A stretch of 64,000 nucleotides of DNA from Candidatus Kerfeldbacteria bacterium CG15_BIG_FIL_POST_REV_8_21_14_020_45_12. Lineage in GTDB: Bacteria; Patescibacteriota; Patescibacteriia; UBA9570; XYC2-FULL-38-9. This document shows, one piece after another, positions 2,737 through 52,229 of this stretch. Made by a program: the position numbers and the translations under genes. Below the pieces are notes generated by a model, which worked only from the letters and a program-made list of their open reading frames with translations, ran no database searches and had not been told where the DNA came from. Position 1 is the first letter of the stretch. Each line of letters opens with the position of its first letter. The stretch covers positions 6,304 to 70,303 of the forward strand of contig PFGC01000050.1 in NCBI GenBank assembly GCA_002781785.1. The letters run 5' to 3'.

Positions 2737-2992
2737 AGATCTCTAACGTTAGAGATGTGGACTCTACTGTACTCAAAGACCCGGAGATTATCCGGCTATC
2801 CGCGTAAGTTCCTGATTATTCGTGGCGGAATCAATTTCATGGGAGAAAAGTCTTTGGGAGTACAGCTCAACCTATGTTGCGGTTCGGAGTCCCTCATCAG
2901 TAATTAGCTGTAGTGCCAGTCTACGCCCTATGGACCTGCCTCGTCAAGATGAATTAAAAAAAGCCCCGATTTCGGGACTTTTTAATACTAGA

Positions 2993-3817
2993 CTAGACGC
3001 GGCCTACAATCTCTAAGTCAGTTCCGCTACCAACTCCCAAGCTCTCAGAGGCGCTACCGCCTTGCTGCATAATTTCCACGAACCGATTTTGGTGCATTCC
3101 AGAACTGCCCACAGTCAGGGCTACGTAGTCATTTGGAATGTCCTTTAAGCGCTCGTAGCAAGGCAGTCGGAATTGTTTATGTCCAGATACTCGGAAGACA
3201 ACCTCGCGGCCAACTTCAAAGCCAATTTCTTCAGGTAAAACATTTGTTTTCATATTTCCAAATGAGTCCACCCAGCAGATCATCGGTTTCATTTCTGGAA
3301 CTCCTGAAAACATTTCGGTTACTTCTAGCTCTTTACCCATCATGATGGCTGCAGCCAGTCGTGGTAGGTAGTCAAAGCTTCTAAATTGAGTGTGGATAAT
3401 ACGCTCCTGTACCTCAGGCGTTAGGTCCATTTGTGGAACTGTCTTTGGAATATCGTATACTTTTACATCAATATTTTTTCCACGAACTTTCTGTAACAGA
3501 CTCAAGGATAAACCATCAATTGTAGTAAAAAGATCGATATTGTCTAGCTTTACCCAGCCGAAAGGAGTTCCATTGGGCCATTTCTTTTGAGCTTCACCGT
3601 GCCGAGGGGCAACGTTTAATAGTACTACGCCTGGTCTGCCTTCGTATGCATCTACAATGTCTACAAGGTTAATTGCAGCCTCGACGTCGTTTTTAACGCC
3701 CACAAAAATAACGTTGCTCCCTGGAAAGTATGTCGAAACACGAGCGCGCAAGCGGCCGGTTGTGTTGTCGTCACGACAGTCAGAGATATAAGTGATTGGT
3801 TCGTTGAAGTTTTCCAT
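2993..3817 (-). CDS. SAM hydroxide adenosyltransferase-like protein (DUF62, chlorinase/fluorinase family)
   Basis: 274 aa; N-terminus resembles the DUF62 fold, and WVDSFGNMKTNV matches the conserved xIDRFGNLITNI motif. Confidence 0.5.
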   Translation of the reverse strand: MENFNEPITYISDCRDDNTTGRLRARVSTYFPGSNVIFVGVKNDVEAAINLVDIVDAYEGRPGVVLLNVAPRHGEAQKKWPNGTPFGWVKLDNIDLFTTIDGLSLSLLQKVRGKNIDVKVYDIPKTVPQMDLTPEVQERIIHTQFRSFDYLPRLAAAIMMGKELEVTEMFSGVPEMKPMICWVDSFGNMKTNVLPEEIGFEVGREVVFRVSGHKQFRLPCYERLKDIPNDYVALTVGSSGMHQNRFVEIMQQGGSASESLGVGSGTDLEIVGRV

Positions 3818-5911: not shown

Positions 5912-7894
5912 TTAGTCACTTAAACCACGTTGCGTTTCTACAATTTCGTAGACCTCAATAATATCGTCTTCCTGTATTTCTACCTCAGTCTGAATTTTCA
6001 TACCGCACTCTGTGGCGTTCTTGACCTCACGAGTTTTTTTCTTGTCTTGTTGTAACTCACTGATAATACCTTCGCCAATATTTTTTCCAGCTCGCAGAAT
6101 TTTTACTGGTGCTTCAAGGCGCATAACGCCGTCCTGAACTCGTCCGCCAGCCACGGTGTATGTTTGCTCTCTTCTGAAAACGGCCAGAATTTTGAGACTA
6201 CCAATTTTATTAAAACTTTTAGCCGCAGACAGTAGTTTTGTCAGCTCTTCCTTAGCTAAATCTATAAGTTCATAAATAATATCATGCAAATGTACAGAAA
6301 TATCTTCGTCTTTGGCAAACTTCAACGCACCATTAGTAATCCCAACGTGGAAGCCCATCACTAGAGCTCCCGAGGCGCTGGCCAGATGGATATCATTTTC
6401 GGTAATGCTGCCTAAGCCTTTCTGAATAAAATCGATTCCTACCTCTTTATGTTGAATGGCTTGTAGAGATTCAACGATAGCCTCAAGCGAGCCTAACTTA
6501 TCGGCGCGAATAATAATGGTGAGTTTTTTCTTACCATCTTCATCTTGCTTTACCCTACCCTTCAGGAAGCCAAAAGAATCATAGCTCTTAACACCATCTT
6601 TCATTTCCTTCTTGTCTTTCACGCTGCGTAGGATATCTCCTACCACTGGAGCGTTTTTTAGGCCCAAGACCTGAGCTGGCGTCGATGGTCCGACTACCTT
6701 CATTTCTAATCCCTGCCAATCTTTTAGAGATCTAATTCGTCCAGGAATATTTCCAACCCTTACTAAATCACCGCGATGAAGTGAACCGTTTTGCACCAGC
6801 ACTGTCGCGATCGGACCGGTGTGTTTATCAACGTGAGATTCAATGATTGTTCCTACCACATCTCCAGCTGGGTTGGCCTTCATGCCATTAGTTTCTACTT
6901 CAGCTAGCAGTAATACAGCATCTAGAAGCTCGTCGAGGTTAGTTCCTGCCTTAGCACTGACGCCAACGGCCACTGTCTTACCACCGTAGTCTTCTGTTGC
7001 TAGATTAACTTCGGATAGTTCTTTTTTTACACGATTTAAGTCTGCTCCTGGCTTATCAATTTTATTGATAGCAACGGCAAAAGGAATCTTAGCTTCCTGG
7101 AGAATATGAATAGATTCAATGGTCTGAGGTTTAATGCCATCATCAGCCGCTACTACCAAGATTGCGATATCAGCCACTCGAGCACCTCGTGAGCGCATCG
7201 TAGTAAAAGCCTCATGACCTGGAGTATCAATAAAAGTTATTTGTTTTCCATTACGCTCAATCTGGTAGGCGCCAATGTGCTGGGTAATGCCTCCAGCCTC
7301 CCCTTCGGTAACATTTGTTTTACGAATAGCGTCTAACAAAGTAGTTTTTCCATGATCGACGTGACCCATAATGACTACAACCGGCGGACGTTCAACCATG
7401 TCTGCTTCAGCTTCTTTGCCTAGAGCCTCTTCGATTTGAGCTGCGCGGTCATCAGTATTATCAATACCAGCATTCTCCAAAGACAGTTCCGGGGTGTAGC
7501 CCATGTCCTCAACAATAATCGCCACCGTATCGTAGTCTAGAGTTTCATTAATTGTCGCCATGATCCCGTTTTGCATAAGGATGGCGATAACGTCAGGAAC
7601 GCGTTTTTCCAGTAGTTCTGCAAGATGCTTCACAGTAATTTTATCTGGCAGTTGGATTTTCTTAATATCTCCTGCTATCGAGTCAACAATAATTTCCTCT
7701 TTAGCTTCGTCTTCAAAGATACTTCTCTTATTATCAGCCTTCCGCTTCTTTTTGATGGCCTGAATTATTTTAACAGCCACAGCGTCATCGAGCTTAATCG
7801 CCCTTTCTCCAATATCAAAACCAAGTTCGTTCACCAGGGTGAAGAACTCGTCTTTAGTCATTTTTAGCTCGCGGTAGAGCTCAGTTACATTCAT
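5912..7894 (-). CDS. infB: translation initiation factor IF-2
   Basis: 660 aa; GTPase motifs GHVDHGKTTLLD and DTPGH, then the IF-2 C-terminal domains. Confidence 0.95.
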   Translation of the reverse strand: MNVTELYRELKMTKDEFFTLVNELGFDIGERAIKLDDAVAVKIIQAIKKKRKADNKRSIFEDEAKEEIIVDSIAGDIKKIQLPDKITVKHLAELLEKRVPDVIAILMQNGIMATINETLDYDTVAIIVEDMGYTPELSLENAGIDNTDDRAAQIEEALGKEAEADMVERPPVVVIMGHVDHGKTTLLDAIRKTNVTEGEAGGITQHIGAYQIERNGKQITFIDTPGHEAFTTMRSRGARVADIAILVVAADDGIKPQTIESIHILQEAKIPFAVAINKIDKPGADLNRVKKELSEVNLATEDYGGKTVAVGVSAKAGTNLDELLDAVLLLAEVETNGMKANPAGDVVGTIIESHVDKHTGPIATVLVQNGSLHRGDLVRVGNIPGRIRSLKDWQGLEMKVVGPSTPAQVLGLKNAPVVGDILRSVKDKKEMKDGVKSYDSFGFLKGRVKQDEDGKKKLTIIIRADKLGSLEAIVESLQAIQHKEVGIDFIQKGLGSITENDIHLASASGALVMGFHVGITNGALKFAKDEDISVHLHDIIYELIDLAKEELTKLLSAAKSFNKIGSLKILAVFRREQTYTVAGGRVQDGVMRLEAPVKILRAGKNIGEGIISELQQDKKKTREVKNATECGMKIQTEVEIQEDDIIEVYEIVETQRGLSD

Positions 7895-8046
7895 AGCTAA
7901 AAAACATTACTGTTTTTAGCCAAAAATGTCAATCTTTACTACTGGCTGCCAAAAGCTTGGTAAAGCAGCCTCCTTGAGTGTCCCTGGATAGAAAACACCC
8001 CCTCTTTAATGGTGAGGGGGCGTTTCTGTCTGGCTTATTGTTTTTC

Positions 8047-10434
8047 CTAACCCTTGGTTGAGAATCTTTTCCACTGAGTAAAGTTTGAGCAGCCAGCGTC
8101 GTTACAGGCTTTCAAACGCCATTGGTATAAGTGAGCGGCTTTCAGTTTTTTTACAGTTTTCTTCACTCCAGACAGGCCGCTGAACTTTCTATATTTAGCC
8201 TTCTTTTGAAAGTCCTTCGCCTTAGCACACTGAGCTTTTTCTTCATTCTTACATTTTCTAACCTGGAGTGTGTAGCTATCGGCGCTGCTAATTGCTTTCC
8301 AGGTTAGATTAACTTGTTTATTTTTTCGTTTCTTGACCACCAATTTCTTCTTCTTTGGTTGGTTTGGTTTTTCAATACTACTGCTTCCCAGCCCCTTGTC
8401 TCCGACTAGGGAGTAGGATGAGAAGTGAGCAACGCTAGCTGTGACCACATTTTTTTCGGTATCAACCGAGGTGGATGAAGTACTGGTGTATGAGTTGGTA
8501 TCTTCATCAAAGCTGGCTGCAGCTAAGTCCTCTTCTACCAAGCCCATATCAGCCAGGCGGTCCTCATCGTAGGATATATGGAGTGTTAGGTCCTGGGAAA
8601 ATTCAGTAATTTCATTTCCAGCACTATCTCTAGCCGAGAAGTCCCAGTTTACTCCAGCGTTATAGTCAGAGTCACTACTTGGTAAGCCAGAAGCTGAACC
8701 AACCGTTAAAGTGATTGTGTCCGAGGCCAAAGCTTCTTTTGGAACAATCAACTCTGACTCACCATCTGGAAGTTCAATCGTAGTTGAACCGGCACTGTTG
8801 TCGAATGTATAAGTCGTGTCATCGTACCAGTTACCGGCCTCTGTTAGGTTAACTGTGACAGAGGTTTCTCCGTCTTTATCTCCGGTCACTACCTTGGTGT
8901 CTGAGGCTCTGTAGTAGGTGTTTTCACCAAATCCATCGCAACCGATCCAAGCAGTGGTGTTGGATAGCCAAGCGATTTCACCACTTCCATTTACTAGCTC
9001 ACCCCAATTTTGTCTGCCAGTTTTTGAGTCATACACGAAGCAGAAGGCATAGTCAGCACCGAAGGCTGTGGCTCCTAACGATTCTGCACCAAATGTTGCT
9101 GTGATGTTGATTGTGTGGTCAGCCTTCACTGCTTGCATGTTCAGGCTCTTTGATCCGTCTTTCTTAAGTAGAACCAACTCATTTTCGGGGGGTAAAACGT
9201 CACCGGTCCAAGCTCCAGTTGGATAGGCCGACACCTCATAGGTAATGCCGCTCTTTACATAAAGAGTAGCCACTCCATTTTCATTAGCCGATGCTCCTAC
9301 ATAGCCGCTCCAATCTGCCGCCGAGGCATCCACTGCGCTAACCCAGGAATATGGATCTGGCTTTCCGTCGGTCCCAAGTACAGTTACTTCAATAGTTCCG
9401 TCTGCTTCCTCAAGGGTAAACGGTACAGTTGTTTCCGCGCCAGATGTTGGTGACGCAATCGTCACCATTTCATAATTCTGAATGTATTTGGTGCCACTTC
9501 CAGTGCTGTAGAGTCCGCCGCTTTTGTATTCATATAGGTCACCACTTCCAGAGTCGACGCTGTCATCTGAGCCAACGTCACTGTCTAGGTTGCTTGTGTC
9601 ATCAACCCAAACACCAACCTGGTAAACGTAGTCACCAGACAGGACGTTTAGTTCGGCGGTACCGTTACCACCCTGACTCCAAGCGAAATCATTATAGTAA
9701 TCATTTCCTTCTGGGTCCGTTACTGAGTAGGCGTAAGCCGAGAAAGATTCAACAGATGTGATAGGATCTCCGTTTTCATCAACCAAAGCTATGTTAAGAG
9801 TGGCGTCGTGAGCCAGCAGTGTAATATCCATCTCCTTAGTTTCACTAGAAGATACGGTTGCGCTTGCTGCTACAGCGCCATAGCCATCAACCCACGCTTC
9901 ACAGGTGTAGGTGCCAGCGACTACGCTAATATCAACAGTGGACTCCCCTGGGTTAAATGACCCCCAAAAATAATTTGTCCAGTCAGCTGTGTAACAACTA
10001 GCAGAGCCCCAGCTGGTTAGTGGAATGGCTACGCTGGCCCCGTCTCCATCGACGAGGTTCAAACGCAGGGTTGCGTCTGTCCTGTTGACTGACAAAGACA
10101 CAGCGGTTACGCCACTGTCTTCAGTTGTAATTCCTTCACTACTATAAGAGCTGGAAAACCCATCCCCCCAGGTGCTGAGGTACCACTGACCAGAATCATC
10201 CTCAGACAGATCCCACGAAGCTACGCCGTTTGAGTCAGTCTGCTCATAGGCCCAACCACTGGTCGTGCTCATGTCGTCGGACCAGCCAGAAACCCAAATC
10301 CCAACAGCTGGATCATCACTCTGATCAGTGACCGTTACTTGAATAGAGCGAGTAGCCGCTTGGGCGCCGGATGCCACAAAAAACACTCCGAGGAGTGATG
10401 TAGTAAACAGCGCAAGCAATGATTTAATGTTCAT
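8047..10434 (-). CDS. large secreted S/T/D/G-rich surface protein with C-terminal Lys-rich Fn3-like module (paralog 1 of 4)
   Basis: 795 aa; signal peptide MNIKSLLALFTTSLLGVFFVASGAQA; repeated beta-sandwich-like segments; C-terminus KKKKLVVKKRK...SYTLQVRKC...YQWRLKACNDAGCS...W is shared with the ORFs at 42823, 51009 and 58115. Confidence 0.6.
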   Translation of the reverse strand: MNIKSLLALFTTSLLGVFFVASGAQAATRSIQVTVTDQSDDPAVGIWVSGWSDDMSTTSGWAYEQTDSNGVASWDLSEDDSGQWYLSTWGDGFSSSYSSEGITTEDSGVTAVSLSVNRTDATLRLNLVDGDGASVAIPLTSWGSASCYTADWTNYFWGSFNPGESTVDISVVAGTYTCEAWVDGYGAVAASATVSSSETKEMDITLLAHDATLNIALVDENGDPITSVESFSAYAYSVTDPEGNDYYNDFAWSQGGNGTAELNVLSGDYVYQVGVWVDDTSNLDSDVGSDDSVDSGSGDLYEYKSGGLYSTGSGTKYIQNYEMVTIASPTSGAETTVPFTLEEADGTIEVTVLGTDGKPDPYSWVSAVDASAADWSGYVGASANENGVATLYVKSGITYEVSAYPTGAWTGDVLPPENELVLLKKDGSKSLNMQAVKADHTINITATFGAESLGATAFGADYAFCFVYDSKTGRQNWGELVNGSGEIAWLSNTTAWIGCDGFGENTYYRASDTKVVTGDKDGETSVTVNLTEAGNWYDDTTYTFDNSAGSTTIELPDGESELIVPKEALASDTITLTVGSASGLPSSDSDYNAGVNWDFSARDSAGNEITEFSQDLTLHISYDEDRLADMGLVEEDLAAASFDEDTNSYTSTSSTSVDTEKNVVTASVAHFSSYSLVGDKGLGSSSIEKPNQPKKKKLVVKKRKNKQVNLTWKAISSADSYTLQVRKCKNEEKAQCAKAKDFQKKAKYRKFSGLSGVKKTVKKLKAAHLYQWRLKACNDAGCSNFTQWKRFSTKG

Positions 10435-10540
10435 ACGCTTCTCATTTTGTTGTTTTATTATTTTCTCGTGCCACTATATAAAAATAGCACATTTAACTTG
10501 ATCATTATAACACAATAGTGAAACTTGATCAAGTCACTTA

Positions 10541-11335
10541 TCAGCTCGTTGCCGCGTCTGATTGATTATCTAGCAGACGTCCCTTGCCAACAATAATTTT
10601 CATTTGAGCAGGCACAATCTCTGCGACGCAAGGAGTATTTACGCTAAAGACATTTTCAACCGACACCTTCAGAGTTTCGCCGGTTGAATCAATGTCTATT
10701 CTTTGAGCAGGAAAAACACTAGCCCGGCCATTAGTCTTAGTTTTACGAGATAACAAGCCGCCGTTAACTTGAGGTGTGATGTTTAGCGATAGGCGACCAT
10801 CCGACGGATCGGCTAATAACGGAGTGCTGCTAGTTAGCACATCACCGGCGTTTAGTATTGAAATTCTATTTGTTTGAGAGGTTGGCGATACCGTGTACTG
10901 TTCATCGCACTGTAGCCTGAGTTCTGCCGCTGCTGGTAATTGCAGTGCCCCAAAAAAGTAATAGTCACCTATTTTACCTAGGTCCACTTCCAGCGTGCGT
11001 CGCTTGGACAATACGTCAACGGCTGCCTCTGCCACCGGCATACCTAAGAGCTTAGCGTAGCGAGAACCAGGTGCTAGTGGGATAAAACCAAAAGTAACGT
11101 CATATGGAGCCACCACGTTGACAGCTGTTGTAAACGTGTGATCATCGCCAACGGCAATAACAGTGTGAGCACCTTTTTTTATTCCGTCCTCTATTAACTC
11201 TTTGGCATTTTTAAAAATGGAGAGTTTCTCAACTCGTCCATTTATACCCAAATCAATCAGTCGCGTTTCGAGAGTTGTGAGCTGAGACTCAAACTGCTTG
11301 TCCTGGGTCAGCTTGTCGTAGAAGTAGAAATACAT
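10541..11335 (-). CDS. DAGK/NAD-kinase-fold protein with degenerate GGDGT motif
   Basis: 264 aa; VIAVGDDHTFTTAVN occupies the position of the GGDGT catalytic loop of the DAGK_cat/NAD kinase family; it may be non-catalytic. Confidence 0.4.
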   Translation of the reverse strand: MYFYFYDKLTQDKQFESQLTTLETRLIDLGINGRVEKLSIFKNAKELIEDGIKKGAHTVIAVGDDHTFTTAVNVVAPYDVTFGFIPLAPGSRYAKLLGMPVAEAAVDVLSKRRTLEVDLGKIGDYYFFGALQLPAAAELRLQCDEQYTVSPTSQTNRISILNAGDVLTSSTPLLADPSDGRLSLNITPQVNGGLLSRKTKTNGRASVFPAQRIDIDSTGETLKVSVENVFSVNTPCVAEIVPAQMKIIVGKGRLLDNQSDAATS

Positions 11336-11357
11336 GCGCGCAGCATGGTGTCACCGA

Positions 11358-11786
11358 TTAGTCTACCTTTTCCTCTGCTACAACTTGAGAGACCGTAGCG
11401 GCCGGCTTTGTGCCAGAGACACAGCGCCCCTGTACCATTGCTCCAGTTTCGATCGAGATAATATCCGTTTCAATATCACCAATAATTCTTGCTGTGCTAG
11501 TCAGTTCAATGATGTGAGTTGCAACAATGTTACCTTTCACTTCGCCGGCAATGTGCATATTCTCGGCACTGACATCAGCTTCAATAGAAGCGTCCTTTCC
11601 AACAGTTAAATTTTTTGTAGTTCTGATTGTTCCGGTCACGTGACCTTCAATCAAAATATTATCTTCACTTTCAAACACACCCTCCACTTTTACAGTAGGA
11701 CCAATCACGGTTTGGGCTGTAGTCTCTCCAGCGCTTACCATGCCATGTTCCGTGCCGTCCTCCTCTTTAGAAAACATCGCTACCAT
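11358..11786 (-). CDS. bactofilin (polymer-forming cytoskeletal protein)
   Basis: 142 aa; typical bactofilin beta-helical repeat pattern (IEGHVTGTIRTTKNLTVGKDASIEADVSAENMHIAGEVKGNI). Confidence 0.8.
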   Translation of the reverse strand: MVAMFSKEEDGTEHGMVSAGETTAQTVIGPTVKVEGVFESEDNILIEGHVTGTIRTTKNLTVGKDASIEADVSAENMHIAGEVKGNIVATHIIELTSTARIIGDIETDIISIETGAMVQGRCVSGTKPAATVSQVVAEEKVD

Positions 11787-11968
11787 AGGATATCTTGTAA
11801 CTCAAATTATCAGGTCCTTAGTGTATCGTTTCTTGCTCTCCCAAGCAAGACTCGCTGCGCGACCTACCGCTAGTTGCAGCTGGCTAGCTATAATTATTCA
11901 GTGAGGGTTGCAGAGAGTAGACGATTAGTGTGTAATGTAGCAACGAAATTCAATTCAAAAAAAGTGAT

Positions 11969-14627: not shown

Positions 14628-15323
14628 TCAGGATTCGTCCTCGGCGACAACCGGGCGGCGCAGGCGCACCGTCGGGGCTTCCGTAGGATCGAAGGTAGCG
14701 GTTTCCGGTGGAGCCAGCTCCCGAGCGGTTGCCAGGTCGATGGACTGAAGTCCTCCGCTGGGAAGGCGACGAACCAGTTCGACCCTGGCGCGTGTCTGCA
14801 CGGGGGACTCCTCGCTCTCAGGAGCGATCAGCGGGAACTCTCGCATGACGTCGACGAGCGGGCTGGCCACGCCAACGAAGCGGTTGGATCGACCAGACTG
14901 GGTTTGGACACCGATCTGCTCGTTGATCCGCTCGACCAGGGACTCTGGGGTTTCGACCCCGATGCTGGCAGCGAACAGGTTCGCCTCCAGTACCACCCAG
15001 TCCTCCTCGAAGCCGTCGATCAGCGGCTGACTGCGTGCTGCCGGCCGAGGGTTGAAGGCCGAGGTCAGGCCGTCGCTCTGGCGGAAGGCCAGAGGAGAGC
15101 TGTCGTTTCGCGGCACGACCCTCTCCAGCCGGTAGAAGACGAGCGTCGGATCATCACCGAACACCCTCAGGACGGTGTCCAGGAAGTCCAAGCAGGTATC
15201 GTCTTCATCGCCGGTCGGGGCTGCCCCGAACACCAGCGCCATCATCACCGTGGGCGGTCGCCCACTTCGGGGAGCTTTCATTCTCACCTCCTTAGGTTGT
15301 GTGGTAGCCGAACTGGCTTCCAT
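14628..15323 (-). CDS. hypothetical protein on a high-GC islet
   Basis: 231 aa, acidic, no recognisable motif. The sequence is visibly far more GC-rich than the flanking genes. I preferred it over the antisense track ORF 14904..15398, which has an R/H-rich composition. Confidence 0.4.
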   Translation of the reverse strand: MEASSATTQPKEVRMKAPRSGRPPTVMMALVFGAAPTGDEDDTCLDFLDTVLRVFGDDPTLVFYRLERVVPRNDSSPLAFRQSDGLTSAFNPRPAARSQPLIDGFEEDWVVLEANLFAASIGVETPESLVERINEQIGVQTQSGRSNRFVGVASPLVDVMREFPLIAPESEESPVQTRARVELVRRLPSGGLQSIDLATARELAPPETATFDPTEAPTVRLRRPVVAEDES

Positions 15324-18250: not shown

Positions 18251-18346
18251 GTTGACTTTAGCTCTGACATAACGTAAATAGAAGGCGACTCAAAAGTGAG
18301 TCGCTCTTTGTTAAACAAATCAACTCGCACGCCGACGTGCAATTTT

Positions 18347-19231
18347 GGAGGAGTGATGAAAATCTCTCCAGACGTGCTGTTCGGCGTGGTGGCAATGCTC
18401 GGCTTCGGCTGTGCAAACCTCATGTCGCAGCCAGTGGCGAAACAGGTAGGAGCTGCTCGCGCCTTGCTCTGGCGCACGATCTTCACGATCACGCTGTCGG
18501 GCATAGCGGCTCTGTCGCTAGGTGACTGGCACCGCCTGACGGCATCTGCTGTGCTGCAGTCCCTGTTCCTGGGGGCGGTCTCGTACATTCCGATCTACTG
18601 CTTCTACAAGGCTATTGAGCACGGCAAGCTGGGAGTAGTTGTGCCCATTGCCAACGCCTACGCCCTAATCACCGTGGCGGCAGGAGTGCTCATTCTCGGC
18701 GAGGTGCTGACGCCCGGGATTGTTCTTGGAGTGCTGTGCACAACACTCGGTCTTGTCATCATGACATGCAACCCAAAGGACTGGCGCAAATCGGACGTCT
18801 GGCATTGGCGCAGCGGAGCTCCCTACGCCCTGATCACGATGGTCACCTGGGGCCTCTTCTTCCCAGCCATCCAGATCCCAGCCAAGCAGCTCGGGGCTGT
18901 TACCAACACCTTCTTCGTGGAGGCGGCCGTAGGAGTAGTCGCTATCGGTCACGGTGTTTACCTGCGACAGTCGCTGGCACCACCAACCGGACGCTACTTG
19001 GTATTAGTTTTCGGGGCAGCCTTGGCTGGAGTAGTCGCCAGCCTCGGTATGTACACTGGACTGGCTGTTGGTAGTGTGAGCATCGTTGGCCCCGTGGCTG
19101 CGGCTAGTCCTGTCGTTGCTGGGATCGGTGCCTGGCTCTGCTTCGGTGAGAAGTTGCGCCCTGTGCAGTACCTGGCAGCGGTCACCACCGTGGCGGGGGT
19201 GGCCGGACTGGCTTTGTTGGCAGGAGGATAG
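18347..19231 (+). CDS. EamA/DMT-family transporter on a high-GC islet
   Basis: About 294 aa from the internal ATG preceded by GGAGG. It has ~10 predicted TM helices and a duplicated EamA-like layout. GC is visibly elevated compared with flanking corC and trxA. A hairpin terminator lies at ~18286-18305 upstream and a hairpin plus T-run lies after the stop. Confidence 0.6.
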   Translation, partial: GGVMKISPDVLFGVVAMLGFGCANLMSQPVAKQVGAARALLWRTIFTITLSGIAALSLGDWHRLTASAVLQSLFLGAVSYIPIYCFYKAIEHGKLGVVVPIANAYALITVAAGVLILGEVLTPGIVLGVLCTTLGLVIMTCNPKDWRKSDVWHWRSGAPYALITMVTWGLFFPAIQIPAKQLGAVTNTFFVEAAVGVVAIGHGVYLRQSLAPPTGRYLVLVFGAALAGVVASLGMYTGLAVGSVSIVGPVAAASPVVAGIGAWLCFGEKLRPVQYLAAVTTVAGVAGLALLAGG

Positions 19232-32333: not shown

Positions 32334-33179
32334 ATGCAAAAAATCGGAGCGCACGTATCAGCGGCTGGCGGAGCACAAAACGCCCCACTTAATGCCAAGC
32401 TAGAAAAGTGTGAGACCTTTCAGTTCTTCGTTAGTAGCCCGCGCACTTTTCAATTTAAGCAACCTACTACTGAGCAGATAGCTGAATTCAAAGCTAACTG
32501 TGAGGCCGGCGGCTTTACCGACACCTATGTTCATGCGTCATATCTCATTAATCTAGCCTCAACTAACAACAAGACCAGACATGGCTCTATCAGCTTACTG
32601 AGGAAGGGTCTAGATGCCTGCGCTCTGCTGGGTGTTACTGGTATGATGTTTCATACCGGTTCGGCTAAGGATTACGAAAATAAAGCTGACGGCATCAAGC
32701 AAGCAGCCGCCTCAATCAATAAAGTTCTAGATGGTTACAAGGGCAAGACAAAATTATTAATTGAAAATGCGGCTGGCGCGGGCAGTACCATTGGTATGAA
32801 CTTTACGGAAGTTGGCGAGCTAATGAAGTTGGTAGATAAAAAATATACCAAACACCTAGGTGTTTGCTTAGACACTCAACACTCCTTTGCTAGCGGGTAC
32901 GATTGGCGCACAAAGGCAGGCACTGATGCCGCCGTTAAGGAATTTGATAAGAAGATTGGCTTAGATAACTTAGTGGTAATTCAGTACAACGATTCTAAAA
33001 CAGAGTGCGGTAGCAATAAAGACAGGCACGAGCACATCGCCGACGGCAATATGGGCCTTCAGGCGGCTAAAAATATACTTGGACACCCTAAGCTTAAGAA
33101 CTATTCGTTTTGCCTAGAGACAGAGCCGGAGGGGCGTGCCAAGGATATCAAAACTCTAAAAACTATTCGTCAAAAATAA
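32334..33179 (+). CDS. nfo: endonuclease IV (AP endonuclease family 2)
   Basis: 281 aa; Nfo-like TIM barrel, conserved His/Asp/Glu metal ligands. Confidence 0.85.
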   Translation: MQKIGAHVSAAGGAQNAPLNAKLEKCETFQFFVSSPRTFQFKQPTTEQIAEFKANCEAGGFTDTYVHASYLINLASTNNKTRHGSISLLRKGLDACALLGVTGMMFHTGSAKDYENKADGIKQAAASINKVLDGYKGKTKLLIENAAGAGSTIGMNFTEVGELMKLVDKKYTKHLGVCLDTQHSFASGYDWRTKAGTDAAVKEFDKKIGLDNLVVIQYNDSKTECGSNKDRHEHIADGNMGLQAAKNILGHPKLKNYSFCLETEPEGRAKDIKTLKTIRQK

Positions 33180-33940
33180 TGAAACTAACCTTACTAGGCA
33201 CTGGAGATTTTCGCCCATATAGACCACTCGGTTCTGCTGGTTACACACTGACAAATGGTGACGATATGTTGCAGTTAGATTTTGGTCGTGGGAACTTGGT
33301 TAATATGGCAAAGTCTGGAATAGACTGGACGGTCCTTCACGCTGTCTGCATATCACACGTGCATCCAGATCATATCTCAGATCTGTTTCAATTTCTCCAA
33401 GCTTGGACAGTCACTAATGCTTGGAAGGAGATTGATAGCGAATTGGTTATCTATGGACCGCGGGGATTTTCAGCATTCTTTGAGCATTACCGCACGGTGC
33501 TAGTCACAACTTGGGATAAGCTACCGCAAATTGTTGAAATTTACGATGACACCTTTACTGTCCAGGGGTTTACTGTGACCACCAAATCCATGCAACATAG
33601 CACTGATTGTAACGGCTATCGGGTGGAGGCAGGCGGCAAGGTCTTGTGCTACACTGGAGACACCGAGATTAATTCCAACCTCCTAGAACTGGCTCAAGGA
33701 GCAGACGTTTTGCTTACTGAGTGCTCTGGAAAAAATGCCGACGAACTGCTTGCCAACCAGTATGGTCATTTGCGGCCCACGGATATTGCTGCCATTGCTA
33801 ACCAGTCAGGTGTTAAAAAGGTGGTTGTCACACACTATCCTGACGATCCAGCAGAACGAGAACTTCGCATCGCTGAAATCGCCAAGGAATACAAAGGGCA
33901 GATCATTCGCGGAGAAGACTTACTAGAAATAGATTTTTAA
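33179..33940 (+). CDS. MBL-fold metallo-hydrolase
   Basis: HVHPDHISD (HxHxDH) motif. I chose the start at the internal Met (MKLTLLGTGD), which overlaps the nfo stop (TAATG). The track ORF begins at 33110. Confidence 0.7.
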   Translation: MKLTLLGTGDFRPYRPLGSAGYTLTNGDDMLQLDFGRGNLVNMAKSGIDWTVLHAVCISHVHPDHISDLFQFLQAWTVTNAWKEIDSELVIYGPRGFSAFFEHYRTVLVTTWDKLPQIVEIYDDTFTVQGFTVTTKSMQHSTDCNGYRVEAGGKVLCYTGDTEINSNLLELAQGADVLLTECSGKNADELLANQYGHLRPTDIAAIANQSGVKKVVVTHYPDDPAERELRIAEIAKEYKGQIIRGEDLLEIDF

Positions 33941-44147: not shown

Positions 44148-44222
44148 TGGAGCGGGTAACGAGAATCGAACTCGTATCTCTGCCTTGGCAAGGCAATATA
44201 ATAGCCATTATACGATACCCGC
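44148..44222 (-). tRNA. tRNA-Gly (anticodon GCC)
   Basis: Acceptor GCGGGTA/TACCCGC, anticodon loop TTGCCAA, T arm ACGAG-TTCGATT-CTCGT, encoded CCA; a terminator hairpin follows at ~44119-44142. Confidence 0.85.
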
Positions 44223-45515: not shown

Positions 45516-45935
45516 TCAAGCCCGACCAATCCAAGAAACATTGGAGGGCAGGCCAGCTGGACGAAGCGTCCGGATGCGCTCGACGATCTCCGGAACTCTT
45601 GCTGTCAGCAGCAGGAGACGCTCACGGGCTTCTTCCGTCAGTCGAGTCTCACCGACAGCTGCGATGTCACACTGTTGAATGGCGTCCAGCTTTACTCGCA
45701 CCGTGACCCAGGGGCCACTGCGGCGAATCCTGGTAATCATGCGAGCGCTGTAGATCTCATGTCGAACGAAGTGCAGCAGGAGACGCTCCAGGTCGAAGAC
45801 CAGAATCGTGCCGTCGGCTGCGTAGATGACTGCCTCACCATCAGGCCGGCGAAACTCCCAGTCGGTCAGTTCCATGGGCCTGATGACAGTTTCACGGATC
45901 ATGCGCGCTCCCACGAGGATGGCTTCTTCTTTCAC
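45516..45935 (-). CDS. hypothetical protein on a high-GC islet
   Basis: 139 aa; protein-like composition; GC is visibly elevated; the strand choice against the overlapping 45492..46055(+) ORF is uncertain. Confidence 0.3.
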   Translation of the reverse strand: MKEEAILVGARMIRETVIRPMELTDWEFRRPDGEAVIYAADGTILVFDLERLLLHFVRHEIYSARMITRIRRSGPWVTVRVKLDAIQQCDIAAVGETRLTEEARERLLLLTARVPEIVERIRTLRPAGLPSNVSWIGRA

Positions 45936-46169: not shown

Positions 46170-47627
46170 TTAAACCAAAATGTCCCACCCTTCATCGAGG
46201 GCCACTTTTTTTAACTCTGGATCAGGATGAACAGCCGTCTTATGTTTAATCAGCTCGAGCATAGGTCTGTCTGAGATAGAATCAGCGTAGCCATAACTCT
46301 TTGTTAGGTCGACACCAAATTGCTCAGCAAACTCGGTAACTAAATCAGCTTTGGTTTGGCCATAGTTTAAGCGCGCTACTTCGCCTGTGTAAATGCCTTT
46401 TTCATGAACTAGCTGTGTGTCAATGACTGAAAGTGCATCAAAATAGTTTTTGAATTGTTTAGCGAGCGGCTCAATAATTTCAGTTACCAATATTATCATA
46501 TGGCCCTGCTCCTTGTGGTCCTTCAAAACTGGAATCATGTGTTTTTGGAGGTGTTCCAGAATGTGTTCGTTAAAAAACTTAGCTGCTTCCTCTTCCACTT
46601 GCTTAGTTGTGTGACCCTTCATAATCGAGAGCGCCCGTTTCATTAACGAGCCATGGGGTAAGAGATGGAACTTCTCCAGCATCAACCAGAGGAAAACCTG
46701 AAAGACTACGCGACGGGGTACTAACCCTTTGGCCATTAGGTGTTTCAAGAAATCCTGTTGGGAATACCCCTTGTATAGAGTATTATCAACGTCCACAAAG
46801 ACACCAATATTATCGGGATGGTATTCTTCCATGTATTCTGGCAAGTATCTAACTGGAAGTAGGGTAATCATTGCTTGTTTAACTTCTTCTTGTTGTTTTT
46901 CAACTGCCTCCCGGAATGAAAAATCCTTTGTGACCTCAGCTGGTTCAATCAAGCCATCAAACCGAACGGTTACAGTGCCAGGTCTTTGGTGCAAAGGGTC
47001 CATGGCTATTTTTTCTAAACCAATCAGGCTCATCGGCATAATTGGAGTTTTTGATCGTATAGAAACTCTAGCGGCCCCAGTGTGTAAATAGTGCAGCTGC
47101 TTGGTGCGTTCGTAGTGTCCTTCTGGAAAAACTAAAACATTATGATGCTGCTCATTTACCGCATCAATCAGTTTACGGAGAGCCGCCTCTTTTTCATTAG
47201 CTTCAGTATGCTTCTCTTCGTCAACATTATCGCGCTGGACATCAATGGCGCCAGATCGCTTCATCCATAATCCAATCGGCCACGGAAAGCTCTTAAATGG
47301 AGCTACTAGTGAATTCAGTTCAGGTCCAACGATAGCTAGCACCAAAAACCCATCCATCCAAGAGGGGTGGTTGGAAACAAAAATAACGGGATGTTCATAA
47401 TTTGGGACATGTGTTCTCAGGTCTAACTTGATTCTCGATAATTTCAACAAGCGAACTGAATTATGGTGAGAAACCAAGCGCCAAAATCGCTCTCTTTGGT
47501 CAGGTTCAATAAACTTTTCTGCCAAGAACATTAAGGGTAATAGACAAATCGCTTGTAAGACAAACGCTGCTTTTACCCATATGGCAAAGATCATTTGGAA
47601 CCAGGTTTTGTCCCAGATTGAGTTCAT
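46170..47627 (-). CDS. lysophospholipid acyltransferase (PlsC-like) fused to HAD-family hydrolase domain
   Basis: 485 aa; N-terminal TM helix plus the NHPSWMDG (HX4D) acyltransferase motif; C-terminal FVDVDNTLY (DxDxT) HAD motif. Confidence 0.7.
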   Translation of the reverse strand: MNSIWDKTWFQMIFAIWVKAAFVLQAICLLPLMFLAEKFIEPDQRERFWRLVSHHNSVRLLKLSRIKLDLRTHVPNYEHPVIFVSNHPSWMDGFLVLAIVGPELNSLVAPFKSFPWPIGLWMKRSGAIDVQRDNVDEEKHTEANEKEAALRKLIDAVNEQHHNVLVFPEGHYERTKQLHYLHTGAARVSIRSKTPIMPMSLIGLEKIAMDPLHQRPGTVTVRFDGLIEPAEVTKDFSFREAVEKQQEEVKQAMITLLPVRYLPEYMEEYHPDNIGVFVDVDNTLYKGYSQQDFLKHLMAKGLVPRRVVFQVFLWLMLEKFHLLPHGSLMKRALSIMKGHTTKQVEEEAAKFFNEHILEHLQKHMIPVLKDHKEQGHMIILVTEIIEPLAKQFKNYFDALSVIDTQLVHEKGIYTGEVARLNYGQTKADLVTEFAEQFGVDLTKSYGYADSISDRPMLELIKHKTAVHPDPELKKVALDEGWDILV

Positions 47628-47885
47628 TATTCAAATTGTTTTTTGATTTCTATTTTCTCGATTTCGTTTATGTATTGTATCATTTTTTCCACTTTTAGTC
47701 AACACAAGGGGTTGACATTTTAGTAATAGAATGGTACTTCTAGCCGGCAAGAAGAGGTGCATTTCGGTGCAGATTCTTCTCGTTCTCATACATTTTAGAT
47801 CTCACCTCTATCGTCTTCAGGCTCTGCTTGAAGGCTCCTTCCCCACCAGCGGCAATTATCCGCTCCCACCACCACGGAGGCCGAC

Positions 47886-49685
47886 ATGGCCACTTCTAGC
47901 ATTGCCCCGACGGGCTCCCTCCAGGTCGTCGACCAGGTGTGGCGGGATGTCGAGGCCCACCGCAACCTCAGCCTGCTTGTCGGCGGCTGTGTGAAGCTTG
48001 GCGTCAACCCCAGTTCGGTCTTGGCGGCCATTGCGCCAGCCATCAACGGACTGGCGGCCAAGCTTCCGGCTGCCGCAGACCTGGCCAAGATGACGCCGCA
48101 GGGTGTCGCTTCGGCCCTCGGGTCCCTGCGGGGTACCTGGGTCACCCTCGACGAGTACAACCGCGCTGCGCTGGCGGTTGTGAAGGCCACGGGACACCCG
48201 TGGCACCTCCGAGAGATCGGAGGTTGCTCCCGGTTCATGGGCTTCGGTGCAGACGCGCTGAAGCTGATGATCAACAACCTCATCGGGAAGTACTTCAGCA
48301 GCCCCTGGCACGTTCTTGGTCAGCTCCCCCGCGGTTCCCACCTCTTCAACAACAACAAGGGGTGGGACAGTGAGTTGGTTGGCCGGGGACATGCCCGACT
48401 GTACTGTCGGTACATGCCGGGTGAATACGGCCAGCCGCCGCGCGAGCCCTCGGAGGACTTCCTCTCGCTGTACCACCTGATCCGGGGCATGAACGAGGCG
48501 CTGCCGATGCTCTGGCCGGGCAACAGCCAGGGTGGGCGGGTTCACTACCCGCTCGTGCAGCTGCCCCTCATGGAGCTGCTCGAGCAGTGGGCCCCCCAGC
48601 TGCAGGCGCGTATCGACGGAGGAGGTCTCTGGATCACCAATGCCGGTGAGGATCGTCTCATCGGCAAGGTGGTCTGGGCGGTGCCCGACTCCCGGGGAAT
48701 CTACGCTGGTCACACGGCGGACGAGTACCCAGGAGAAGATGGCATCGAGGGAGTGCGCCTGTCTCAGGCGATCACCACTCCCTGCACCTGCTGCTGCGAC
48801 CCTCAGGGCGAGCCCATCCACCACTCGCTGTTCGAGGCCGGCGAGACCTTCATGATCAATCGTGTGCGGGGCACCTTCCCGTCCACGATCGTGGAGGTGC
48901 AGTGGAACCCGACCCTCGGTGACCTCCTCCCTTTGAACAAGGGCACACTGCAGACCAGGCTGATGGAGGAGCATCGAGAGGACCAGGGCGCTCGCGCTCT
49001 GGTCAGCACGGTCAACAAGCTGGCCCTGGCGGAGGCGGTTCTCGGAGGGATGTTCCCCAACGAGGAAACTGCTGCCATCGTGGCAGACCGAGTGCATCGG
49101 CGCGCCACGGGCACGGAGACCAAACTCCTGTGGTCCCAGGCCGACATCGCCATCTACACAGACATCGTCAGCTCCGAGCAGGTGATGACTGGCATGGATG
49201 TTGGTGACTGGACCAAGCGGGTTCAGCGCATGTTCGACCGGATGCGCGAGCTCGCATCCAGGCACGGGGTCTGGCTCTACAAAGAGACCGGTGACGGGGC
49301 AGTATTCATCGCTACGGCCTCCTTCGGGCAGGTCGCGGCGATCAACTGTGCTGAAGTCGGTCTCGGCGGAATGCTGGACCACGCCCTGGCCTTCGCCTCG
49401 GAGCTCCCGGCCATCGTGCGGGAGACGCTCGGGGCTGAGATCAGGGTCGGAATGCATGTCGGTGAGAACTACTGGAGGATCCAGGGAGCGGGCCTGCTCG
49501 AGGCCAGCGGCGTGCCCATCACCCGAGCCGCTAGGCTCGAGGCGGCGGGACAAGCCGGTCGAGTGCTCGTCAGCCCCGAGGTCGTTCAGATGGCTAAAGG
49601 CCTGAGCTGGGAGTTCCAGCCCCGAGAAGACTACACCGTCAAGCACAGCAAGGTCATCACGGGTCACCTCCTGGTCGTCAGCTAG
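47886..49685 (+). CDS. class III nucleotidyl (adenylate/guanylate) cyclase-domain protein with ~400-aa uncharacterised N-terminal region; high-GC islet
   Basis: 599 aa. The C-terminal ~190 aa carry the cyclase homology domain pattern (IAIYTDIVSSEQVM..., KETGDGAVFIA, EIRVGMHVGE, GVPITRAARLEAAGQAGRVLVS). GC is conspicuously high compared with flanking genes. I preferred it over the fully overlapping antisense track ORF 47856..49697. Confidence 0.7.
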   Translation: MATSSIAPTGSLQVVDQVWRDVEAHRNLSLLVGGCVKLGVNPSSVLAAIAPAINGLAAKLPAAADLAKMTPQGVASALGSLRGTWVTLDEYNRAALAVVKATGHPWHLREIGGCSRFMGFGADALKLMINNLIGKYFSSPWHVLGQLPRGSHLFNNNKGWDSELVGRGHARLYCRYMPGEYGQPPREPSEDFLSLYHLIRGMNEALPMLWPGNSQGGRVHYPLVQLPLMELLEQWAPQLQARIDGGGLWITNAGEDRLIGKVVWAVPDSRGIYAGHTADEYPGEDGIEGVRLSQAITTPCTCCCDPQGEPIHHSLFEAGETFMINRVRGTFPSTIVEVQWNPTLGDLLPLNKGTLQTRLMEEHREDQGARALVSTVNKLALAEAVLGGMFPNEETAAIVADRVHRRATGTETKLLWSQADIAIYTDIVSSEQVMTGMDVGDWTKRVQRMFDRMRELASRHGVWLYKETGDGAVFIATASFGQVAAINCAEVGLGGMLDHALAFASELPAIVRETLGAEIRVGMHVGENYWRIQGAGLLEASGVPITRAARLEAAGQAGRVLVSPEVVQMAKGLSWEFQPREDYTVKHSKVITGHLLVVS

Positions 49686-49772
49686 ACCTGACCACAACCC
49701 GGAGAGTCTGATCGCGCAAGCGGACAGATTCGAAGGGTTCTTTTTTTACCCACATGTCACTAGTTTCTATAT

Positions 49773-50069
49773 GTGTTAACATCAATTAAGAGTACTATCT
49801 TACTCAAGAAAGGAGGTGTATATATGAAAGGAGCACACATGGTCGCTTTCGGTCTCGTCATCATTGGCGGGTTAAACTGGTTGCTTGTTGGGTTATTCCA
49901 ATGGGACATCGGTGAACTATTCGGTGGCATGGACGGAGTCGTTTCACGAATCGTTTATGTCCTGGTTGGTCTTTCCGCGGTTTATCTTGTTGCAATGCAC
50001 AAGAAGGACTGCATGTCCTGTAAAATGGACAGTAAAAAGCCAGCTATGCCAACAGATAGCGTTAGTTAG
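49773..50069 (+). CDS. DUF378-family small membrane protein
   Basis: GLVIIGGLNWLLVGLFQWD signature; the likely start is the internal MKGAHMVAF. Confidence 0.55.
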   Translation: MLTSIKSTILLKKGGVYMKGAHMVAFGLVIIGGLNWLLVGLFQWDIGELFGGMDGVVSRIVYVLVGLSAVYLVAMHKKDCMSCKMDSKKPAMPTDSVS

Positions 50070-50160: not shown

Positions 50161-50233
50161 GGCGTGGTAGCAAAATTGGTTATGCAGCCGCCTGCAAAGC
50201 GGCTATATGCCGGTTCGAGTCCGGTCCACGCCT
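50161..50233 (+). tRNA. tRNA-Cys (anticodon GCA)
   Basis: Acceptor GGCGTGG/CCACGCC, anticodon stem GCCGC/GCGGC with loop CTGCAAA, T arm GCCGG-TTCGAGT-CCGGT; a hairpin terminator follows at ~50281-50310. Confidence 0.8.
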
Positions 50234-50321
50234 CAATTAGAGAGGCGACGAGGTTATTGCCGTAGCCTCAAGCGATAAAAATAACCCCGACAAGAAGTCG
50301 GGGTTATTTTGATATCTTTTT

Positions 50322-51008: not shown

Positions 51009-52229
51009 CTATTTAACTGACTTTGGAGCTGTCTGAAATCTATTCCAGTCAGTATATTCTCCACAACCAGTTTCATTGCAAGCCCTCACCCTCCACTGGT
51101 AGTAGAAATCTGGCTTTAATTTTTTAACAACCTTGGATGTTGTTGTTAAGTCATTAAATTTCTTCCAATTTTTTTTCTTAGCAAAATCATTTTTCTTTAC
51201 GCATTTTTTACCACTATCGTTTTTACATTTTCTAACCTGTAGATCGTAGCTGGTGGCAGTGTCAACTTCTTGCCAACTCAGTGTAGCGGTTTTAGACTTA
51301 ATCTTTTTCTCCTTCAGCTTTTTCTCCTTCACCTTACTTGGTTTCTCTTGCGCGCTGTTTATTGTTACCACGACTCGGTCAGAACTATCTCCAGTTTCAG
51401 ACTGGGTAACAACCTGGTACCCAAAGTTTCCATCACACTTGTCGGTTAGATTGCACCAGTTGCCTAGGGCTTGGCGAATTTCTAAAGAGGCCTGAGGCAC
51501 ATCTGGACCACTGCCGGAACCATCCATATTTGTTTCGGAATCTTCGGAGTCAACCGACCCAATCAAGGTATCTTCTTCCTCTTGGAATCCAGCAGTATCA
51601 CCACTTTCCTCATAAATTTCTAAGAAACTTCTATCTTCTGAGGCAGAGCTTATAGAGTCCCCGAATTCAGCCATGCTGGCAACCTGCTCAGAAGTAAGCG
51701 TGATATTGGCTACCAGGTAGTTTGTATAGACTTCCTCGCCAGATGGTCCGAAGGCGAACACCATGTTGTGATCAAAGTCCTTGGGTAGTGAGGTAATAGT
51801 TCCGGCTAGCGCCAAGTCATAGATAGATTCGAATGCATCTTCTGTTACATTGTAGACTCCTTGCATTGGCCAAGCCGTGGTGAAGCCAACGTACATATCG
51901 GTTGCACTGGTGCCAAAATAGAGCTCAAGTAGGTCTACCTGTGACTCGTCATGGTAGAGGTAAGTAGCACAGTTATCATCACTGGCAACTTCTACCCAAC
52001 TAGACTCATCCCAACAATAAGGAGTGGAGACCAAGGGCTCCTCGCCAGACTCGTCAATAATCTGAGCTTCTTCTGGCCAGTCGCTAAAATCACCATCAAA
52101 GGTAATTGAGTCAGTTTCGATGGTAGATTCAATTGCTCTGGCGTTTGCCGCCGAGATGGTCAGCATAAGCCCGCCGGCTGTTATTAGTGCCGCTAAGGCA
52201 ACGGCAATTTTTCCTGTGGTTAGAAACAT
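51009..52229 (-). CDS. secreted acidic surface protein with C-terminal Lys-rich Fn3-like module (paralog 3 of 4)
   Basis: 406 aa; signal peptide; C-terminus ...TATLSWQEVDTATSYDLQVRKCKND...YQWRVRACNETGCGEYTDW, nearly collinear with the 8047 paralog. Confidence 0.55.
   Translation of the reverse strand: MFLTTGKIAVALAALITAGGLMLTISAANARAIESTIETDSITFDGDFSDWPEEAQIIDESGEEPLVSTPYCWDESSWVEVASDDNCATYLYHDESQVDLLELYFGTSATDMYVGFTTAWPMQGVYNVTEDAFESIYDLALAGTITSLPKDFDHNMVFAFGPSGEEVYTNYLVANITLTSEQVASMAEFGDSISSASEDRSFLEIYEESGDTAGFQEEEDTLIGSVDSEDSETNMDGSGSGPDVPQASLEIRQALGNWCNLTDKCDGNFGYQVVTQSETGDSSDRVVVTINSAQEKPSKVKEKKLKEKKIKSKTATLSWQEVDTATSYDLQVRKCKNDSGKKCVKKNDFAKKKNWKKFNDLTTTSKVVKKLKPDFYYQWRVRACNETGCGEYTDWNRFQTAPKSVK

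Follow-up and report, generated by a model that had tools for sequence, protein, structure and literature searches.

A class III cyclase family with a predicted H-NOX-like sensor fold, probably resident in Candidate Phyla Radiation bacteria and paired with a PlsC-HAD gene

Introduction

A sharply bounded stretch of anomalous composition around a single gene raises the question of whether that gene is a foreign arrival or a resident and, when it encodes a signalling enzyme, of what it would respond to. We examined this question for a gene encoding a class III nucleotidyl cyclase in a stretch of 64,000 nucleotides (hereafter the window) from Candidatus Kerfeldbacteria bacterium CG15_BIG_FIL_POST_REV_8_21_14_020_45_12 (assembly GCA_002781785.1, contig PFGC01000050.1, positions 6,304 to 70,303). 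The first-pass annotation of this DNA, made from the sequence without database searches, had described a cyclase arriving alone on an islet of foreign composition and had considered a Pycsar-type defence module. Our analysis leads, with moderate confidence, to a different view: the gene is a resident, lineage-specific gene of the Candidate Phyla Radiation (CPR, Patescibacteria) rather than a recent import, and it encodes a ligand-regulated, probably homodimeric soluble class III cyclase. The protein is a class III cyclase with one non-canonical catalytic residue; it is not an H-NOX protein by sequence or haem motifs, and it is not a Pycsar cyclase. In the literature library searched, we found no description of this family or of a bacterial fusion of an H-NOX fold with a class III cyclase, and nothing specific on cyclic AMP (cAMP) signalling in Patescibacteria or on GC-rich islets in CPR genomes.

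Results

A resident gene of a single-architecture family

The cyclase gene forms its own transcription unit, which coincides with the islet and lies between two genes that the first-pass annotation had correctly named and that are both matched in Pfam. The features of this region are as follows (aa, amino acids; nt, nucleotides).

47886..49685 (+): sensor-cyclase coding sequence (CDS), 599 aa, from the first in-frame ATG at 47886 to a stop codon ending at 49685 (list of open reading frames (ORFs), third-position GC frame and Pfam)
47876..47880 (+): Shine-Dalgarno-like GGAGG, 5 nt upstream of the ATG, read from the sequence
49696..49747 (+): intrinsic terminator, with a hairpin at 49696-49739 and U7 at 49741-49747, at the 3' edge of the GC-rich islet (RNA folding)
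47800..49720 (no strand): GC-rich islet coinciding with the transcription unit, 64.5% GC against 45.5% in the rest of the window
47628..47885 (no strand): intergenic region shared with the divergent PlsC-HAD gene (promoter scan)
46170..47627 (-): PlsC-HAD gene, a fusion matched by Pfam Acyltransferase at 59.7 bits and by HAD at 90.7 bits, native GC of.43
49773-50069 (+): DUF378 gene flanking the cyclase gene (Pfam)

The terminator has a fold energy of -22.9 kcal/mol (z -3.07), and the sole prediction of the promoter scan was a minus-strand promoter-like site at 47702-47674. An earlier placement of the gene start at 47731 did not survive, as the ATG there opens an 87-aa ORF in a different frame. 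The 599-aa protein is 100% identical to the hypothetical protein COW24_05020 from the metagenome-assembled genome of Candidatus Kerfeldbacteria CG15_BIG_FIL_POST_REV (contig PFVE01000025.1).

An exhaustive HMMER search with aa 1-380 as query, run against 1.84 billion representatives with a family cut of E<=1e-3, returned 44 proteins, 25 of them at E<=1e-10. We treat these as the family (about 44 representatives at 50% identity; residue counts below are over non-gap members). Nearly all members are 550-690 aa long and align over both halves, the exceptions being three of 310-408 aa and one of 911 aa. Within the reach of HMMER, the N-terminal region is almost confined to proteins of one architecture. 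Searches by word index, whether the query was the whole protein, its cyclase half or the family alignment, recovered nothing beyond generic cyclases and the protein itself. The genomic contexts of 11 other family members resemble those of typical small CPR genomes.

These 11 loci (L004, L007, L009, L010 and L012-L018) and the window make up the 12 loci used for comparison of context. In all but one of the 12, the cyclase gene has a PlsC-HAD gene no more than 2.5 kb away (11 loci), and in eight the two are directly and divergently adjacent (the window, L004, L009, L010, L012, L014, L017 and L018). One small ORF intervenes in L015 and L016 and three genes in L007, and L013 has no PlsC-HAD gene in the available sequence. 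By BLASTP the PlsC-HAD neighbour has 41% identity (E 8e-47) in L017 and 47% (E 2e-179) in L018, the latter being the locus of Candidatus Microgenomatus auricola. The remaining flanks vary, with DHFR/ThyA in the window, TIM/TPR in L009 and L010, and HIT/HisRS in L012; the pairing of cyclase and PlsC-HAD has thus survived rearrangements that broke every other adjacency. A third conserved gene beside PlsC-HAD was sought and rejected, since homology among the small neighbours is limited to the window and L004.

The closest homologue of the window protein (P0002, 41-43% identity) occupies the syntenic position in the related genome L004. Co-divergence of the cyclase with PlsC-HAD was examined in seven genomes by pairwise identities and neighbour-joining trees: the identities of the two proteins correlate with a Spearman coefficient of.84, and both trees give the same sister pairs.

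Composition and evolutionary rate

The high GC content reported for this gene is real. Composition profiles step up and down within about 100 bp at the islet edges, and GC at codon positions 1/2/3 (GC1/2/3) is.66/.46/.82 in the cyclase gene, whereas GC3 is.37-.54 in window ORFs outside three smaller GC-rich islets. The same tendency is seen across the family, the cyclase gene exceeding its flanks in GC content in 11 of 12 genomes. The difference between gene and flanks is +.20 in the window, +.17 in L004 and L015, +.16 in L012, +.13 in L018 and L009, +.12 in L017, +.11 in L013, +.08 in L016, +.05 in L010, +.02 in L014 and -.03 in L007. The excess is mainly at third codon positions (GC3 of.87 in L004 and.77-.79 in L009 and L018), and it recurs among members that are only 20-43% identical. 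At such divergence synonymous sites are long saturated, so a one-off transfer would have ameliorated; the recurring excess is therefore not the mark of a recent transfer.

The rate at which the cyclase gene evolves is also about double that of its neighbours: syntenic orthologues of the window and L004 are mostly 56-83% identical and the cyclases 41%. Fast evolution alone does not produce the GC excess, as is seen from a 406-aa acidic protein with a C-terminal fibronectin-III-like (fn3) domain (51009-52229, -), which is only 38% identical to its L004 counterpart and yet has native GC. The GC excess and the fast evolution are a property of the locus that is separate from the sensor-cyclase mechanism. 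One candidate cause is GC-biased gene conversion specific to this locus, which would then be recombining and diversifying. Others are selection for rare codons that keep a potent enzyme scarce and repeated allelic replacement from unsampled GC-rich relatives.

The composition also accounts for a long ORF on the opposite strand.

47856..49697 (-): 613-aa antisense ORF, not a gene (ORF list)

Because this ORF covers the entire region, it could be taken for the real gene, just as the islet could be taken for an assembly chimera, but we find either proposition extremely improbable. The antisense translation has no Pfam match, its codon-position GC (.81/.47/.66) mirrors that of the sense frame, and the frame is broken in every relative, running for 301 codons in the closest orthologue and for 39-271 in the others. 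The sense protein, by comparison, has 43 homologues and folds with a predicted local distance difference test score (pLDDT) of 90. The antisense ORF arises from the base composition and stays open because A-ending sense codons are scarce; the plus-strand reading of the first-pass annotation thus stands. The cyclase gene, with identical flanks and the same junctions, was recovered from independent ENA, NCBI and Logan assemblies, which argues against a chimera made by a single assembler.

Foreign origin and defence

A recently acquired islet, perhaps carrying a Pycsar-like anti-phage cyclase, is a reading that we now consider very unlikely. Arrival of the cyclase alone on a foreign islet is not supported, given the fixed architecture of the family, the partner gene present in nearly all loci, the synteny with the closest relative, the co-divergence with a neighbour of native GC and the family-wide GC excess. 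No closer donor-like homologue was found among the 1.84 billion representatives. At the islet we found no integrase, and the search for flanking repeats and target-site duplications gave only short matches at chance level. The N-terminal domain had no match among 50,697 phage and 72,556 plasmid records, and a pattern scan that used the three closest members picked up a single genome locus (L018) and nothing in metagenome collections or IMG/VR.

The search for a defence function gave equally little. PycC models and PADLOC families gave no match to the window cyclase at E<=0.1, and its structural scores to Pycsar PycC are lower than those to canonical adenylate and guanylate cyclases. Unlike PycC, the window protein carries a large sensor module and lies in a conserved neighbourhood of housekeeping type, and it was not found on mobile elements. 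Precomputed Pfam matches show no effector (a cyclic-nucleotide-binding protein with a transmembrane or TIR killing domain) within +/-10 kb, in agreement with the first-pass annotation, which had seen none nearby. The PlsC-HAD pairing, the co-divergence, the synteny and the absence of phage, plasmid and IMG/VR matches together leave both the lone foreign arrival and the Pycsar reading unsupported, and residence in the lineage is the reading we carry forward.

The N-terminal sensor, middle domain and linker

The N-terminal part of about 400 aa had been called unrecognisable. This is correct for sequence methods, as the first 380 aa have no match in Pfam (E<=10), NCBIfam or PADLOC, and it does not hold at the level of fold, where an H-NOX-like domain and a beta-rich domain are predicted. 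Structure models are confident, with a pLDDT of 90.4 for the full length and of 93.3 (predicted template modelling score, pTM,.90) for the N-terminal part. The segments preceding the catalytic domain are as follows.

47943..48593 (+): H-NOX-like sensor domain, aa ~20-236, a helical subdomain followed by strand-strand-helix-strand
48594..48926 (+): beta-rich middle domain, aa ~237-347, with conserved G260, TPC(300), GE(I/T)(Y/F) and W340
48777..48824 (+): Cys cluster TPCTCCCDPQGEPIHH, aa 298-313, a variable loop (column counts, alignment)
48930..49052 (+): long helix, aa 349-389, predicted coiled-coil or signalling helix from sensor to cyclase
49053..49106 (+): cyclase-transducer-element-like segment FPNEETAAIVADRV, aa 390-407, with a model helix at 393-407

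The best structural matches are haem H-NOX proteins (4u99, 6mx5 and 1xbn), aligned over 159-171 of their 187-195 residues. In an independent Foldseek search, H-NOX entries ranked first with a probability of up to.99 (E about 0.015). The N-terminal half is thus predicted from these models to be a family-specific sensor with an H-NOX-like fold, in which N27, G103-H104, P140, N157-K158, D191, S194 and G201 are near-invariant. The beta-rich middle domain had no match among solved structures in the PDB. The Cys cluster, to which attention had been drawn earlier, is present (TPCTCCCDPQGEP at aa 298-310) and turns out not to be a family hallmark: it lies in a variable loop in which C300 alone is broadly conserved (33/44), and the CxxC...H pattern occurs in only about 10-12 members.

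Beyond the middle domain, the helix at 349-389 and the shorter one at 393-407 form a predicted coiled coil leading into the class III catalytic domain, and 262 residues align to 6pas_B. The transducer-like segment has P391 in 41 of 44 members, and phmmer aligned FPNEETAAIVADRV with LLANMLPGSIAERLK of the mycobacterial adenylate cyclase 5o5k.

The catalytic domain

49119..49676 (+): class III cyclase catalytic domain, aa ~412-597, with D426, D470, K466, E539, R520, T546 and R550

The assignment of this domain to class III, fused to a region of roughly 400 aa without a family match, is borne out by Pfam: Guanylate_cyc (PF00211) matches aa 423-596 with E 5.8e-12 and 46 bits against a cut-off of 21.9, and the domain has the cyclase homology domain fold. 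The motifs cited in its favour are all present, namely IAIYTDIVSS (421-430), KETGDGAVFIA (466-476), EIRVGMHVGE (518-527) and GVPITRAARLE (542-552). Residue roles were mapped by phmmer alignment to CyaB and from the established roles of class III residues. Both metal-binding aspartates, whose presence the first-pass annotation had left to alignment, are in place: D426 and D470 align with the Asp of FSDIRGF and of GD in CyaB and are conserved in 42/42 and 41/41 family members. The phosphate-binding R520 is likewise found in 42/42 members and the transition-state arginine R550 in 36/40. At the base-specifying positions, K466 is Lys in 28/41 members, and position 539 is acidic in 32/41 (Glu in 17, Asp in 15), the window protein having E539. 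The conservation of both aspartates and of the arginines indicates that the active site is under selection, and its Lys with an acidic residue makes it look adenylate-type.

The same counts bear on the alternative that this is a catalytically weak or dead cyclase-like module, acting as a nucleotide-binding regulatory protein (for example of the PlsC-HAD partner) rather than as a second-messenger synthase. The replacement of a catalytic residue discussed below could be cited for it. We judge this alternative rather improbable, as all members with this region keep the metal aspartates and Arg520, and most keep Arg550, the pattern expected of a selected active site, and as genes for cyclic-nucleotide-binding proteins adjoin the cyclase in L007. 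There, the genes that separate the cyclase from PlsC-HAD include two small ones with cNMP_binding matches of 29.3 and 27.0 bits (cut-off 27.5); the products of these two have no Pfam-detectable effector domains. These genes are the only direct hint of a signal reader for the active cyclase that we favour.

Other features of the window and related loci

Three smaller single-gene GC-rich islets occur in the window, which has a GC content of 45%.

14628-15323 (-): 231-aa protein without a family match, GC.64, GC3.75
18296-19231 (+): EamA transporter, GC.60, GC3.68
45516-45935 (-): 139-aa protein without a family match, GC.59

The syntenic L004 orthologue of the 139-aa protein (7680-8084, 47% identity) has a GC of.62 and a GC3 of.83. 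Among the relatives, L007 presents a reversed picture at 9802-11887, where the cyclase gene has native GC (.375) and the three intervening genes, the two cNMP_binding proteins and a 157-aa protein of unknown function, are GC-rich, at.55-.60 against.40 for the genome. Other single genes that exceed their flanks in GC, by +.10 to +.15, are found at 2001-3000 and 5001-6000 in L009, 3501-4500 in L012 and 19001-20000 in L004. None of the proteins encoded by these other genes has a Pfam match, which suggests a recurring class of GC-rich lineage-specific genes.

A 16-nt direct repeat at 47571-47586 and 49744-49759 (TTTTACCCATATGGCA and TTTTACCCACATGTCA, 88%) loosely flanks the islet and is probably due to chance, its first copy lying within the PlsC-HAD CDS, 230 bp from the islet edge. 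An Rfam scan of the window gave two tRNAs only, tRNA-Cys(GCA) at 50161-50234 (+) and tRNA-Gly(GCC) at 44148-44222 (-), whose distances from the islets range from a few hundred bp to a few kb; no integrase or repeat marks either as an integration site. A metallo-beta-lactamase (MBL)-fold protein at 33176-33940 (+) has an L004 orthologue (71% identity) with a precomputed Anti-Pycsar_Apyc1 match, which would imply a cyclic-nucleotide phosphodiesterase. As a candidate for such an enzyme in the window it was rejected, since the window protein matches generic Lactamase_B families only (E<=1e-3). In L016, a DNA gyrase B gene at 10184-11968 contains an intein (precomputed Pfam Intein_splicing).

Discussion

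A possible mechanism and the evidence against it

The features described above can be combined into a working mechanism. A small ligand would bind a pocket in the H-NOX-like domain lined by N27, H104, N157, K158, Y176, D191 and S194, and its signal would be relayed through the beta-rich domain and the coiled coil with its transducer element to the two catalytic domains of a homodimer, as modelled on soluble guanylate cyclase and mycobacterial Cya. The dimeric core, once switched on, would produce a cyclic nucleotide, most likely cAMP to judge from Lys466/Glu539, which proteins of the CAP type that bind cyclic nucleotides may read, as the two genes in L007 suggest. The output would probably concern membrane-lipid handling. 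As for the ligand itself, we tentatively propose a hydrophobic or lipid-derived molecule, by analogy with related folds and from the nature of the partner gene.

Several observations weigh against this account. The likeness of the sensor to H-NOX is at the level of fold only, with an identity of 8-9% and a Foldseek E of only about 0.015; hhalign comparison of the family profile with H-NOX sequences, including the Tt H-NOX sequence (checked to be identical to 1u4h), gave a probability of about 0, and the sensor has no Pfam HNOB (PF07700) or HNOBA match, even at E<=10. The conserved polar residues would fall on the elements that line the H-NOX pocket, a placement made by the order of secondary-structure elements and not by superposition. 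In the catalytic domain, the transition-state Asn position is Thr546 in the window protein (GVPITRAARLE against GREVNLASRLE in the alignment), so that of the Asn-Arg pair Arg550 is kept and Asn is replaced. Across the family this position is N in 23 members, D in 7 and T in 3. Loss of the transition-state Asn lowers kcat in mammalian cyclases, and Thr546 may likewise mean a lower turnover or activity in the window member. The pair Lys/Glu, where the canonical residues for ATP are Lys/Asp, makes the product uncertain as judged from residues. Vertical inheritance is argued from seven taxa with neighbour-joining trees, and the putative link to lipid metabolism is drawn from gene neighbourhood alone. 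Finally, precomputed Pfam matches show no gene for a cyclic-nucleotide-binding protein within 10 kb of the window cyclase, and the window has no homologues of the L007 proteins.

Haem or lipid as the ligand

The sensor could instead use haem to detect gases or redox state. The protein would then be a prokaryotic counterpart of soluble guanylate cyclase, with haem bound in the H-NOX-like domain, perhaps through His104, and NO, O2 or CO acting as the switch. The structural matches speak for this reading, since the best are haem H-NOX proteins and cover nearly the whole H-NOX domain, and the order of sensor, middle domain, coiled coil and class III cyclase, with its long alignment to 6pas_B, mirrors that of soluble guanylate cyclase. 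His104 is near-invariant (43/44), and Tyr176 lies where the Tyr of the YxSxR motif sits in H-NOX. Nevertheless, we think such a sensor quite unlikely. No proximal haem-ligating His is conserved in the helix before strand 1 (aa 140-153), where H142 and H152 vary; the one His that is near-invariant is H104, 54 residues ahead of that strand. The YxSxR motif is absent, Y176 (33 Y, 9 H) standing at the end of strand 2 and being followed by MPGEY without S-x-R. The failure of the HNOB and HNOBA models and of hhalign counts here as well, as do the specificity residues, which are Lys/Glu and not the Glu/Cys of guanylate cyclases. CPR bacteria are not known to synthesize haem. The related folds of V4R, Bet3 and the N-terminal domain of VirS bind hydrophobic, non-haem ligands.

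A hydrophobic or lipid-derived ligand is therefore favoured over haem, because the haem His and the YxSxR motif are missing, because fold relatives bind hydrophobic ligands and because the partner is an enzyme of membrane phospholipid synthesis. Haem as the ligand we rank below it, as an unlikely candidate. Organisms of this kind are thought to depend on scavenged lipids. A more ambitious and correspondingly doubtful proposal would join these threads: a prokaryotic counterpart of soluble guanylate cyclase, with an H-NOX-type sensor for haem and gas or for a lipid, would control membrane-lipid handling, while a locus-specific force (GC-biased gene conversion or rare-codon selection) rather than transfer would keep its locus GC-rich and fast-evolving.

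Comparison with known systems

The protein shares with soluble guanylate cyclase the plan of sensor, middle domain, coiled coil and class III cyclase. It differs in having a sensor without sequence relationship and without the haem-ligand His and YxSxR, a middle domain that is beta-rich and not PAS/HNOBA, and Lys466/Glu539 in place of Glu/Cys as specificity residues. It also differs in its bacterial (CPR) host and in that one gene carries all catalytic residues, which makes a homodimer likely rather than an alpha/beta heterodimer. The bacterial H-NOX proteins of Shewanella (4u99), Nostoc (6mx5) and Caldanaerobacter (1xbn) are the best structural matches at low identity, and their haem motifs are not conserved in the family. 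The bacterial H-NOX proteins described so far either stand alone, as partners of a histidine kinase or a diguanylate cyclase, or are fused to chemotaxis receptors, and the reviews consulted (PMC8738867, PMC9814294) give no fusion to a class III cyclase.

Class IIIa/b cyclases such as Rv1625c/Cya of M. tuberculosis, Cya of M. intracellulare (5o5k) and CyaB of P. aeruginosa are driven by membrane or known sensors, whereas the driver here is a cytosolic H-NOX-like module confined to the family, and the catalytic residues depart from theirs in the changes Asn to Thr and Asp to Glu. The V4R, TRAPP Bet3 and AraC-type VirS domains cover only about 125-180 residues, with scores below those of H-NOX; they are not linked to cyclases and have no sequence similarity to the window sensor.

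Biological meaning

The composition of this locus carries a caution for the detection of transfer from composition: a gene can look strongly foreign (GC3 of.82 against about.42) and yet be inherited with its neighbours, and a GC anomaly may reappear among relatives that share only 20-43% identity. The family itself is an undescribed group of sensor-cyclases, so far found only in CPR-type gene contexts, in organisms with very few recognisable signalling proteins. It couples a predicted H-NOX-type fold and a class III cyclase directly in one protein, as is otherwise seen in the soluble guanylate cyclase of eukaryotes. Its pairing with PlsC-HAD, which has resisted rearrangement, suggests how bacteria unable to make their own lipids might sense or regulate lipid acquisition.

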